This document shows, one piece after another, positions 17,437 to 60,991 of a stretch of DNA of 64,000 nucleotides. Within the stretch, counting starts at the first letter, position 1. Each line of letters begins with the position of its first letter. The stretch lies in IMG/VR virus record IMGVR_UViG_2880412407_000002, one strand, 5' to 3'. The stretch comes from a virus (Duplodnaviria; Heunggongvirae; Uroviricota; Caudoviricetes). The notes under the pieces are model-generated. The model searched no databases. It worked only from the letters and a program-made list of their open reading frames with translations, and was not told the origin of the DNA. Made by a program: the position numbers and the translations under genes.

Positions 17437-19382
17437 ATGGTATTTAAACACTACGATGTGGTCAGGGCGGCATCGCCGTCAGACCTTGCTGATGCACTTG
17501 CGCAAAAAATTCGTGAAGGATGGCAACCATACGGTGGGCCGTTTTCTTCGTATACGGATGATGGCGCAGCACTTATTCAGGCGATTGTCGCAGAAGGTGA
17601 TGTGAGCACACCTGTTGTGGTGAAGCCGTCGGATGGAGAAGGCACAGTAATCAGCGCCACCAGAGACCCGGAGTATTACTTTGTTGTTGTTCTGGCGGGG
17701 CAGTCAAACAGCATGGCATATGGTGAAGGCCTTCCGCTGCCGGAGACATATGACCGTCCGGACCCGCGTATTAAGCAGCTGGCGCGCCGCAGTACGGTGA
17801 CACCGGGCGGTGCAGCATGCAAATATAACGACATCATTCCGGCGGACCATTGTCTGCATGATGTGCAGGACATGAGCCGCCTTAACCATCCGAAAGCGGA
17901 CCTGTCAAAGGGGCAGTACGGAACCGTGGGGCAAGGGCTGCATATCGCCAAAAAATTGCTGCCGTTTATACCGGCGAATGCGGGCATTCTGCTGGTTCCG
18001 TGCTGTCGTGGTGGTTCAGCGTTCACCACCGGAGCCGATGGCACATACAGTGACGCGAGTGGTGCCTCGGAGAATTCAACCCGCTGGGGTGTGGACAAGC
18101 CGCTGTATAAGGACCTTATCGGTCGAACAAAAGCAGCACTGAAGAAGAATCCGAAAAATGTGCTGTTTGCCGTGGTGTGGATGCAGGGGGAATTTGATTT
18201 TGGCGGTACGCCGGTAAATCACGCAGCACAGTTTGGTGCGCTGGTTGATAAATTCCGTGCAGACCTGGCGGATATGGCAGGTCAGTGCGTCGGTGGCTCT
18301 GCTGGCGGTGTTCCCTGGATATGTGGAGATACGACGTATTTCTGGAAGCAGAAGAACGAATCCTCGTACCAGACGGTGTACGGCAGCTACAAAAACAAAA
18401 CGGAAAAGAATATCCATTTCGTACCGTTCATGACGGATGAGAACGGGGTGAATGTGCCGACGAACAAACCGGAAGAAGACCCGGACATTCCGGGTATCGG
18501 ATATTACGGTTCGAAATGGCGTGACAGCTCAGCCACCTGGACGTCACAGGACAGGGCGAGCCATTTCAGTTCATGGGCTCGCCGCGGGATTATTTCCGAC
18601 CGTCTGGCAACGGCGATTTTGCGCCATGCGGGAAGAGTGGCGCTAAACGCGGGGGCATCATCGACAGTATCAGAGGTGCGCCCGTCATCGCCTTCCGGTG
18701 CAGAAGCCACAGGCGTCACAGCACTGCTCTCTTACCTTGCCAGCGAGTCAGAGGGAAGCCTGAAAGTACAGGGATGGTCAGCCAGTGGCGGCAGGGCAGA
18801 AGTGGTCAGCGATGCGGAGGGAACCGGAGGTAAGGCAGTGAAGCTGACCAAGGAAGCCGGTAAAAGCAGCTGGGTGCTGGAGTACGCCGCGGGCAACGGT
18901 GCGGCTCTGTTACAGAAAGGGGGGCAGATTCGCTGCCGCTTTAAGGTTTCGGGAGCGCTGGCTGCGAACCAGTATGTTATGGCGTTTTACTGGCCGGTAT
19001 CTTCACTGCCACAGGGCGTTGCCCTGACCGGAGACGGGGGAATAACCTGCTGGCAGCGTTCTACATCCAGACAGATGTAAAAGACCTGAATGTGATGTAC
19101 CACAATGCGAAAGTGGCGACAAACAACCTGAAACTGGGAACCTTTGGCGCATTTGATAACGAATGGCATACGCTGGCTTTCCGCTTTGCCGGGAATAACA
19201 GCCTTCAGGTGACGCCGGTTATTGATGGTCAGGATGGCACACCGTTCACGCTGACGCAGTCACCGGTCAGTGCATTTGCGGCGGATAAACTGCATGTGAC
19301 AGACATTACCAGGAATGCGACTTACCCGGTGCTGATTGACAGCATTGCGGTGGAAGTGAACAACGCGGATGCCGCGGCATGA
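17437..19382 (+). CDS. nanS: NanS-p-like sialate O-acetylesterase (SGNH/SASA); frame shifts at a G5 run at 19036-19040
   Basis: GQSNSMAYGEG motif; N-terminal DUF1737-like region; C-terminal 96 aa continue in the +1 frame (ORF 19092-19382). Confidence 0.6.
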
Positions 19383-19518
19383 TAAAAAAAGCCGCCAGTT
19401 GCCTGAGACCTCTGGCGGTGTGAGATTCATGGAGAATCAAGGAAAGATACTACCACTTTCGTCATCGGCATTTTTAAATGAAAACTGTTTACTTAGTCAA
19501 CCATAACGGTAAGAAATT

Positions 19519-19698
19519 ATGACATTTATTCATCAGCTGATGCTGTACTTCTGTACGGTGGTCTGTGTGCTGTATCTCCTTTCGGGTGGGTACAGGGCCA
19601 TGCGTGACTTCTGGCGCAGACAGATTGACAAAAGGGCCGCTGAGAAAATCAGCGCCAGTCAGTCAGCCGGAAGCAAACCCGAAGAGCCGCTCATTTAG
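19519..19698 (+). CDS. Small single-pass membrane protein candidate
   Basis: 59-aa ORF MTFIHQLMLYFCTVVCVLYLLSGG... absent from the ORF track (below length cut-off). Confidence 0.3.
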   Translation: MTFIHQLMLYFCTVVCVLYLLSGGYRAMRDFWRRQIDKRAAEKISASQSAGSKPEEPLI

Positions 19699-19738
19699 CG
19701 GCAACTTTCTTAATCACATCTTTCGACGAGAAAATCCC

Positions 19739-19984
19739 ATGTCAGAAATTACATCCCTGGTCACTGCTGAGGCAGTGAAGGAAGTCCTGCGCTCTGAAGA
19801 AGTCCGGAGTGCACTGAAACAGAAACTCCGCCAGAATCTTGAGTCGCGTCTTGATGCAGAAGTGGATGCTATTCTGGATGAACTGCTGGGCGCACCGGCA
19901 GTTCCTGAGCCGGAAGGTATCGCGGGTGAGGGGAGTGCTTCAGATGGCGGTGAACCCACACCTGACAGCGACATGATGATGTAA
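19739..19984 (+). CDS. Hypothetical acidic protein
   Basis: 81-aa ORF from ATG 19739 upstream of the holin. Confidence 0.3.
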
Positions 19985-20060
19985 GCATGCGCAAGGGGCC
20001 ATCGGTGTGTGCCGGTGGTCTTTATATTGTTGTGAGCTTCCGGATTGCGGGAGACGGGGT

Positions 20061-20276
20061 ATGTACCAGATGGAAAAAATCACAACAGGTGTGTCATACA
20101 CCACGTCAGCGGTGGGAACGGGCTACTGGTTCCTGCAGTTGCTGGACAGGGTTTCCCCGTCTCAGTGGGCGGCAATAGGCGTGCTGGGGAGTCTGCTGTT
20201 TGGGCTGCTGACATATCTGACGAACCTGTATTTCAAGATTAAAGAAGACCGGCGTAAGGCGGCACGGGGAGAGTAA
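20061..20276 (+). CDS. Holin, S21 pinholin-like, with dual-start motif (MYQM)
   Basis: 71 aa with two TM segments and charged C-terminus; strongly resembles phage 21 S. Confidence 0.8.
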
Positions 20277-58735: not shown

Positions 58736-59339
58736 GCGTTCTCCCCATGAGCATTAAAGGATGCTTAAGATATGCTATGTCACTGATAAAAAATTTGTTG
58801 TGTGTGTTTAGTTATTTTATCTACCTCCATTATGATTTAAGACTGATATATGTTATCAGCAAAGGTACATCGTTATTATTTTACCTGTCAATACATTTGA
58901 TATTGATTATCGTTTACATCGCTTGCTTAGGAAATTGAAGGCAGGTAACTATCATGTCAATGAACTAACCCACAGTCTAACGTACTTCTTTCCCCAATCA
59001 CCAACAACCAAATTCCTGTTATCACCACTGGGATTTTGGCGCAACTTCATGGTGCAGAGGTAAATAGCATCAAGCAAAATCTCTTTTTCCGTTGTTGTCC
59101 TTATGGGACGTCTGTCTTTCTGACCGATTTCATATTGGCGAGGTAATGGGAAGTTAAGTAGAATAGCTGCGGGTGCTTGAGGCTATCTGCCTCGGGCATG
59201 AACACCAACGGCAGATAGAGAAAAGCCCCAGTTAACATTACGCGTCCTGCAAGACGCTTAACATTAATCTGAGGCTCAATCTATGAACGGCAAATCTAGG
59301 TTAGCCTCTTACGTGCCGAAAGGCAAGGAGAAGCAGGCT

Positions 59340-59495
59340 ATGAAGCAGCAAAAGGCGATGTTAATCGCCCTGATCGTCATCTGTTTAACCGTCATAGTGA
59401 CGGCACTGGTAACGAGGAAAGACCTCTGCGAGGTACGAGTCCGAACCGGCCAGACGGAGGTCGCTGTCTTCACAGCTTACGAACCTGAGGAGTAA
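59340..59495 (+). CDS. hok: Hok-family type I toxin; mok-like extension from 59283
   Basis: Protein identical to the hok at 11985-12140. Confidence 0.75.
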   Translation: MKQQKAMLIALIVICLTVIVTALVTRKDLCEVRVRTGQTEVAVFTAYEPEE

Positions 59496-59662
59496 GAGAC
59501 CTGGCGGGGGAGAAATCCCTCGCCACCTCTGATGAATCAGGCATCCTCAACGCACCCGCACTTAACCCGCTTCGGCGGGTTTTGTTTTTTCCTGGCATTC
59601 TGGTTTACAATTCGCACGCCAGCCTGAACAACTGGCACCTGCTGCGCCAGCAGAGACAACCG

Positions 59663-59941
59663 ATGGCGCACGATACCAAATTATACAATTCTGATGATTC
59701 TGCCGTCTTTGCCAGCAGGCGCGGACGGTGTTTTCACGCATTCAAATCTGACTGGTACCAGCATCCCCCATGCACTGAAGAACAGGCCGAATGGCTCATT
59801 CAGTGTTACCGCAGGCGCGGATGCGAGGTTAAAAAAGCCCTTAGCCTCGACTACCGTCACTGGATAATCTCCGTCAGGCTCCCTTACTCCGAACAGCCAC
59901 CGCGTCCGTCCCGCACATTCCAGCAACGGATCTGGAGGTAA
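59663..59941 (+). CDS. Small protein conserved in both prophages
   Basis: Homolog of 12308-12586. Confidence 0.45.
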   Translation: MAHDTKLYNSDDSAVFASRRGRCFHAFKSDWYQHPPCTEEQAEWLIQCYRRRGCEVKKALSLDYRHWIISVRLPYSEQPPRPSRTFQQRIWR

Positions 59942-59942
59942 T

Positions 59943-60991
59943 GTGCGGGTATTACTTCGACCTGTTCTGGTACCGGAACTCGGTCTGGTTATCGTTAAGC
60001 CAGGCCGTGAATCCATGCGGGTATTTCATGGCGGCAGGGTGCTGGTGGAGTCTGAACCGAAAAGCATGCGTAATCTGCCGTCCGGGGTCGTTCCTGCCGT
60101 TCGCCAGCCGCTGGCGGAAGATAAATCATTACTGCCATTTTTCAGCAATGAGCGTGTGATTCGTGCTGCTGGTGGCGCTGGTGCACTGTCTGACTGGTTA
60201 TTACGTCACGTTAAATCCTGCCAGTGGCCTCATGGTGATTATCATCACAGCGAAACTGTCATACATCGTTACGGTACCGGCGCGATGGTGTTGTGCTGGC
60301 ACTGCGACAACCAGCTGCGCGACCAGACATCCGAATCACTTGAGCAACTTGCTCAACAAAACCTGTCAGCATGGATGATTGACGTCATCCGCCACGCAAT
60401 GAATGGCATACAGGAACGGGAATTATCGCTGGCTGAATTATCCTGGTGGGCAGTCTGCAATCAGGTGGTGGACGCATTACCTGAGGCAGTATCGCGTCGT
60501 TCTCTGGGATTACCGGCGGAAAAAATCCGCTCCGTATACCGTGAAAGCGACATCATACCGGGAGAACAGACCGCCACCAGCATACTGAAGCAGCGCACAA
60601 AAATATTGCGCTACCGCCTCACACCCACCAGCAACAGAACCCACCACAGGAAAAGACGGTGGTCAGCATTGCCGTTGATCCGGAGTCTCCGGAATCCTTC
60701 ATGAAACGACCTAAACGTCGCCGCTGGGTAAATGAGAAATACACACGCTGGGTAAAGACACAGCCGTGTGCGTGTTGTGGTAAGCCAGCGGACGATCCTC
60801 ATCATCTGATTGGTCATGGTCAGGGTGGAATGGGAACAAAATCCCACGATATTTTCACGCTACCGCTGTGTCGGGAGCATCACAACGAGCTTCATGCGGA
60901 TCCGCTGGCGTTCGAAGAAAAGCATGGTTCCCAGGTTGATTTAATTTTTCGTTTTCTTGATCACGCTTTTGCAACCGGCGTGCTCGGGTAA
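59943..60991 (+). pseudogene. DUF968-type gene split by a 1-nt deletion in an A run (A5 at 60599-60603, A6 in prophage 1)
   Basis: Two overlapping ORFs (253 and 110 aa) collinear with the intact 349-aa ORF at 12588-13637. Confidence 0.55.

Follow-up and report, generated by a model that had tools for sequence, protein, structure and literature searches.

Single-base homopolymer deletions that interrupt seven prophage genes of an Escherichia coli O121:H19-type assembly are very probably consensus errors

When conserved genes of a prophage appear broken in their reading frame, is the prophage decaying or is the assembly at fault? This question is raised by IMG/VR record IMGVR_UViG_2880412407_000002, a stretch of 64,000 nucleotides (hereafter the window, meaning the whole stretch that was analysed) which represents an Escherichia coli O121:H19-type chromosome segment with two lambdoid prophages in tandem. 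A first-pass annotation had noted eight frame breaks in seven genes (nanS-p, the head protease, U, H, lom, stf at two sites and the DUF968 gene of prophage 2), and all of these could be located by alignment. The deletions that cause them are present in the window, private to its assembly, one-directional and confined to homopolymers. In our judgement the eight breaks are very probably errors of the assembly consensus and not biology.

A megablast search with window positions 19000-43900 among 5,426 complete E. coli genomes yields full-length matches of ~100% identity in chromosomes of the O121:H19 clone (2014C-3599, GTVSS-020, FWSEC0006, 2015C-3107 and 2002-3211), and in each of these the matching stretch exceeds the query by 6-7 bases. 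Base-by-base alignment of all 64,000 bases to 2014C-3599 and GTVSS-020 reveals exactly eight indels. Every one is a 1-bp deletion in the window and every one is located in a homopolymer (six G runs, one T run and one A run). No insertions are found in the window relative to these two genomes over the full 64 kb, and no further small indels beyond the eight exist in 1-64000 relative to GTVSS-020. The affected sites, with the run length in the window set against that in the relatives, are as follows, together with one intact paralog that serves as internal control.

19036-19040 (+), nanS-p, a DUF6645-SASA esterase gene (17437-19382; Pfam DUF6645, SASA and DUF1737): G5 against G6, break at codon 534, upstream frame stops at 19080.
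27020-27024 (+), fusion of a ClpP-like prohead protease and the major capsid protein (gene 26987-28965; Pfam CLP_protease and Phage_capsid_4): G5 against G6, break at codon 12, stop at 27103.
30491-30494 (+), tail terminator gpU (gene 30292-30689; Pfam Phage_tail_U): T4 against T5, break at codon 67, stop at 30594.
33424-33427 (+), tape measure H (gene 32264-34908; Pfam TMP_2 and Tape_meas_lam_C): G4 against G5, break at codon 387, stop at 33565.
41440-41442 (+), lom (gene 41056-41654; Pfam Ail_Lom): G3 against G4, break at codon 129, stop at 41457.
42486-42489 (+), stf N-terminal gene, tail fibre (41719-43030; Pfam phage_tail_N, Collagen and Phage_fiber_C), first break: G4 against G5, at codon 256 in the collagen-like repeat.
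42512-42514 (+), stf N-terminal gene, second break: G3 against G4, at codon 265 in the collagen-like repeat, stop at 42528.
60599-60603 (+), DUF968 gene of prophage 2 (59943-60991; Pfam DUF968): A5 against A6, break at codon 219, stop at 60704.
12588-13637 (+), DUF968 paralog of prophage 1, the internal control: intact, with A6 at the homologous position and 99.5% identical to the broken copy.

Addition of one base per site gives seven full-length open reading frames (ORFs) without internal stops, and their translations differ from the reference proteins at 0 amino acids. Downstream of the breaks the repaired ORFs display no secondary decay, that is, no additional substitutions or stops. Two details of the first-pass annotation have to be adjusted. 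It described G or A runs that look one base short, which is correct for nanS-p, H, lom, stf and DUF968 but not for gpU, where a T run is affected. It also considered the head-protease break to be imprecisely placed; the break does exist and can now be fixed to the G run at 27020-27024 (34 nt downstream of the start codon).

Comparison of the homopolymer lengths with those of close homologs shows that, at the orthologous sites, the run is the longer one in five close O121 genomes. A sixth O121 genome, the noisy assembly 16-9255, itself has indels at two of the eight sites. Among the drafts, contig L022 (which carries the J allele of the window) has the longer runs at 30491, 33424 and 41440 and encodes intact protease/capsid, U, H and lom products, and AEZX02 contig L015 reads G6 at the nanS-p run. 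None of the breaks is carried at the orthologous locus by the related strains (nearest genomes and drafts); breaks shared with such strains are what the first-pass annotation had named as evidence against under-calling.

The same is seen at the level of the population. We searched the 5,426 complete genomes for each short allele in an otherwise identical context of 59-109 bp, a design that may miss diverged paralogs. The exact short allele is absent for gpU (0/491 records), H (0/640), lom (0/3614), the stf sites (0/705) and DUF968 of prophage 2 (0/2366). For the protease run it occurs in 1/2048 records; this is 2013C-4974, an unrelated strain in which the gene is flagged as frameshifted by the Prokaryotic Genome Annotation Pipeline (PGAP). 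Queries of 83-85 bp were ambiguous at two sites (partial matches of at least 99% identity), and shorter queries settled lom and nanS-p, the latter of which is discussed below. Exact look-up of the truncated products of nanS-p (547 aa) and H (433 aa) returned no record.

A further indication comes from the balance between indels and substitutions. Measured against 2014C-3599 in the same 25.9 kb, GTVSS-020 has 0 indels and 6 substitutions, FWSEC0006 0 and 11, 2015C-3107 1 and 25, and 2002-3211 a single compensated indel pair and 103 substitutions. In this stretch the window counts 7 indels to 4 substitutions, against at most 3 indels to 145 substitutions for the sister genomes (Fisher p = 8e-8). 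At four positions the window differs by a substitution from both references (16201T, 40405A, 50937T and 55014T). Exact-sequence look-ups recover the lineage single-nucleotide polymorphisms (SNPs) in the methylase, J and a replication-region protein from other assemblies; in addition, draft contig L024 matches window 48524-59894 at 100% identity, and draft contigs L018-L020 match at 100% identity over 5.4-6.5 kb inside window 11139-18149. To judge from these shared sequences, all four substitutions are genuine lineage SNPs. The private differences of the window thus amount to 8 deletions, with 0 insertions and 0 substitutions that are demonstrably its own. Since the four substitutions are shared with other assemblies, the consensus appears to be right in its bases and wrong in its run lengths only.

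The spectrum of the deletions is equally skewed. Runs of at least 4 nt hold 7.9% of the bases of the window, and eight indels placed at random would all hit such runs with a probability of ~1.6e-9. That eight of eight events are deletions has p = 0.004. Per run, G/C tracts are affected eightfold more often than A/T tracts (6/316 against 2/818, p = 0.007). A bias towards G on the given strand was considered too, given that six G runs and no C run are hit, and was discarded as uninformative (G runs outnumber C runs on this strand by 246 to 70; p = 0.22). The affected runs are 4-6 nt long, and 0/25 runs of at least 7 nt are affected. True replication slippage climbs steeply with run length, so that the longest tracts are expected to be hit first.

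A closely similar spectrum is known from PacBio-only assemblies. In the ARAMIS study these contained systematic single-base G/C deletions in 4-6-nt homopolymers, and genes were truncated even at 361x coverage (PMC8574707). The window resembles them in being deletion-only, mostly G/C and restricted to runs of 4-6 nt, with frameshifts in an otherwise accurate consensus (PMC8574707). It differs in that two of its eight deletions lie in A/T runs, and the comparison is to be read with the sequencing platform of the window only inferred.

Errors in the sister assemblies concern the same prophage and take other forms. 2015C-3107, assigned to the PacBio set of the Centers for Disease Control and Prevention (Table 2, PMC8767318), has a private G4>G3 deletion in the terminase at the same locus. 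In the older assembly AEZX02, nanS-p contains four homopolymer indels that are private to that assembly. Heavily affected is 16-9255 (NZ_CP022407.1, L008), a hybrid Unicycler assembly of Oxford Nanopore Technologies (ONT) R9.4 and Illumina data (PMC5786694): in the region orthologous to window 18800-44100 it shows 87 deletions, 24 insertions and 105 substitutions relative to the sister genomes, with frameshift flags on about a dozen late genes. It was published as a high-quality O121 reference (PMC5786694) and is unsuitable as a reference for prophage gene integrity. For ONT data the Kastor study likewise describes false deletions at 4-5-nt homopolymers that fragment genes, with A/T runs favoured and with insertions and substitutions besides (PMC12007338). 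The likeness to ONT R9.4 and hybrid errors is therefore partial. The same prophage in 16-9255 is full of homopolymer indels, with indels at two sites of the window, but 16-9255 has the 24 insertions and 105 substitutions given above, where the window has no insertions and no demonstrably private substitutions.

Given that the deletions are private, that private substitutions are lacking, that the spectrum matches known errors of PacBio-only assemblies and that the sister assemblies err differently, we favour an assembly artefact. This agrees with the preference of the first-pass annotation for under-calling of homopolymers during sequencing: what is observed is private, deletion-only and homopolymer-confined, with longer runs in the relatives. 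The assembler would have called one base too few at eight short homopolymers. The most likely source would be a long-read consensus, presumably of the PacBio continuous-long-read type, for which correction with accurate short reads was probably not made or not possible. Lambdoid late genes occur in several near-identical copies per genome, which would make correction of run lengths difficult. The flanks of the sites are indeed multi-copy within 2014C-3599, where those of the protease site occur in 3 places and those of the stf site in 6, and short-read polishing probably fails in such regions. In the order of the list above, the actual DNA most likely reads G6, G6, T5, G5, G4, G5, G4 and A6, and with these longer runs nanS-p, the protease/capsid fusion, gpU, H, lom, stf and DUF968 would all be intact. 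Under-calling in homopolymers is already a textbook artefact; in that respect there is nothing new here.

The alternative that survives best, although we consider it very unlikely, is real pseudogenisation, in which eight homopolymers of a single isolate each lost one base to replication slippage, with the loss of head, tail and accessory gene function in a decaying prophage. Homopolymers do undergo slippage, and the late genes of a prophage are free of selection in the lysogen. The position of the deletions could also be taken to fit. Based on the annotation of the relatives' records, prophage 1 (lambdoid, beside yccA) starts with int, exo, racR, DUF968, rusA, methylase, iraM, nanS-p and the lysis genes and continues with terminase, portal, the protease/capsid fusion, the tail genes, lom, stf and, at the end, espK. 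Seven of the eight breaks are grouped in its late region, a stretch of 23.5 kb that makes up 37% of the window. This region is GC-rich with a positive GC skew and contains 55% of all G/C runs of at least 4 nt, so that the clustering is mostly explained by the high density of G runs.

Nonetheless, pseudogenisation would need eight independent indels without a single private substitution, where the finished sister genomes show at most the 3 indels per 145 substitutions given above. Lee et al. (2012, PNAS) reportedly found spontaneous indels in E. coli to be about a tenth as frequent as substitutions, and at that ratio at least eight indels among 12 events would have p ~2e-6. There are no insertions, the 25 runs of at least 7 nt are untouched, no break is common to any relative at the orthologous locus and the frames beyond the breaks are free of decay. 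Lesions that are truly inherited (the DUF4014 frameshift and ORF remnants described below) are, on the other hand, common to all relatives. A mutator strain deficient in mismatch repair was rejected as an explanation, as the window has no private substitutions. Were the deletions real after all, a single O121:H19 isolate would very recently have disabled head, tail and accessory genes of its espK prophage plus a gene of the neighbouring one, a course of events to which we give little credence. A burst of G-run slippage of this sort, unaccompanied by substitutions, would suggest either that the isolate was for a time an indel-specific mutator or that particle production was selected against.

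Two observations do weigh against the interpretation as consensus errors. Firstly, some clustering in the late region is left after G-run density has been taken into account (p ~0.03), which we judge too weak to build on. Secondly, the nanS-p run reads G5 in 11/635 complete-genome records with an identical 61-bp context, so the short allele recurs in other genomes. Its carriers are various prophage paralogs in strains that are unrelated (O121, O157 and others); four of the 11 were examined (paralogs L025-L028), and in each of them PGAP marks the gene as frameshifted. This run is a hot spot that is hit repeatedly, by miscalling or by true slippage.

The variability of nanS-p leaves some room for a mixture, in which most breaks are artefacts and one or two are real slippage variants with the nanS-p G6 run as the candidate. 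We regard this, too, as very unlikely. The G5 allele does cross unrelated O157, O121 and other strains, but all 11 records are 'complete' long-read assemblies that may share the same error hot spot. Moreover, the orthologous copy is G6 in the five close O121 genomes and in AEZX02, and 16-9255 reads G4 at this very run.

Gene conversion from a paralog with a short run was also considered. It was rejected for seven runs, for which the sister genomes offer no donor with matching context; the single carrier of the short protease allele is an unrelated strain, hence no sister-genome donor. For nanS-p another paralog in the sister genome 2015C-3107 has G5 in the identical 61-bp context, and conversion from a paralog might have been the source of the short run there.

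Functional frameshifting or phase variation, with the short runs as contingency tracts or programmed slippage sites, is extremely improbable: one true programmed -1 frameshift does exist in the same operon (G/GT), but the tracts measure a mere 3-5 nt in the window, where 7-8 nt or more would be expected of a contingency tract, and no slippery heptamer is found at the eight breaks. Homologues across E. coli have each of these proteins in one uninterrupted frame, and the in-frame arrangement in all relatives effectively refutes this reading.

The G/GT tail chaperone itself deserves mention. A heptamer A_AAA_AAG is located at 31861-31867, near the end of gpG (31463-31885), and the -1 frame after it continues into the Phage_tail_T ORF, with the T frame open to 32220. 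On sequence grounds this is a genuine programmed -1 frameshift site. In all relatives PGAP labels T as 'incomplete', which reflects a missed programmed frameshift and not decay. The lambda G/GT system thus resembles the breaks in that the frame changes within the tail operon; it differs in that its canonical site is kept in all relatives and is not among the eight.

Real lesions can be recognized in the same prophage. A DUF4014 family gene at ~10157-10374 is annotated as frameshifted in 2014C-3599 and in GTVSS-020, with identical sequence in the window; the lesion is an inherited one that the relatives share, and it exemplifies a real pseudogene of prophage 1. Other inherited lesions common to all relatives are several ORF remnants in the early region and a truncated tail-fibre-assembly remnant after espK. 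The lysis, head and tail gene set of prophage 1, in turn, is complete and intact in the sister genomes. In lambdoid prophages of enterohaemorrhagic E. coli (EHEC), real defects consist of insertion sequence (IS) insertions, larger deletions and inherited frameshifts that are common to related strains. Asadulghani et al. (2009) are said to have described a 'defective prophage pool' of genuinely defective EHEC prophages. Prophage 1 resembles such prophages in carrying an effector (espK) and in having apparently disrupted morphogenesis genes, but each of its lesions is private, affects 1 bp only and lies in a homopolymer.

Differences of another nature are also observed around the two prophages. 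Prophage 2, likewise lambdoid, directly follows prophage 1, and both share modules in direct orientation: the int/xis/exo start is near-identical (1-1965 and 45929-47893, 99.2% over 1,965 bp) and so is the hokD-DUF968-rusA region (11786-13996 and 59142-61350, 97.5% over 2.2 kb). Through these repeats the neighbours could recombine, and reads could be mapped to the wrong copy. An IS600 copy (IS3 family) that separates the DNA methyltransferase from iraM in 2014C-3599 is missing from the window, where the site (16752-16754) is empty; GTVSS-020 is likewise without IS600 at this site, and FWSEC0006 has a different IS3-family insertion inside stf. Such IS differences among sister strains are real structural polymorphisms, unlike the 1-bp artefacts. 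Finally, clustered substitutions at 30313-30352 (the 5' part of gpU) and 29290-30339 are common to GTVSS-020, 2015C-3107 and draft L022 and absent from the window and 2014C-3599. This cluster looks like a short recombination tract swapped between paralogous prophage tail modules.

What remains is the meaning for prophage 1 and its kind. The eight breaks provide no evidence that prophage 1 is defective: the genes are intact on the evidence presented here, and therefore the breaks allow no conclusion on its viability or on the formation of particles. Taken at face value, seven conserved genes (including capsid/protease, tape measure, tail terminator, NanS-p esterase and Lom) would be annotated as pseudogenes, and an espK-carrying prophage would be counted among those that cannot form particles. 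Beyond this case, private homopolymer frameshifts occur in the multi-copy lambdoid prophages of 'complete' long-read genomes of the EHEC type, and the same locus is differently affected in 2015C-3107, 2013C-4974, 16-9255 and AEZX02. Counts of prophage 'defectiveness' that are based on such assemblies therefore need to be checked against the reads or against relatives.

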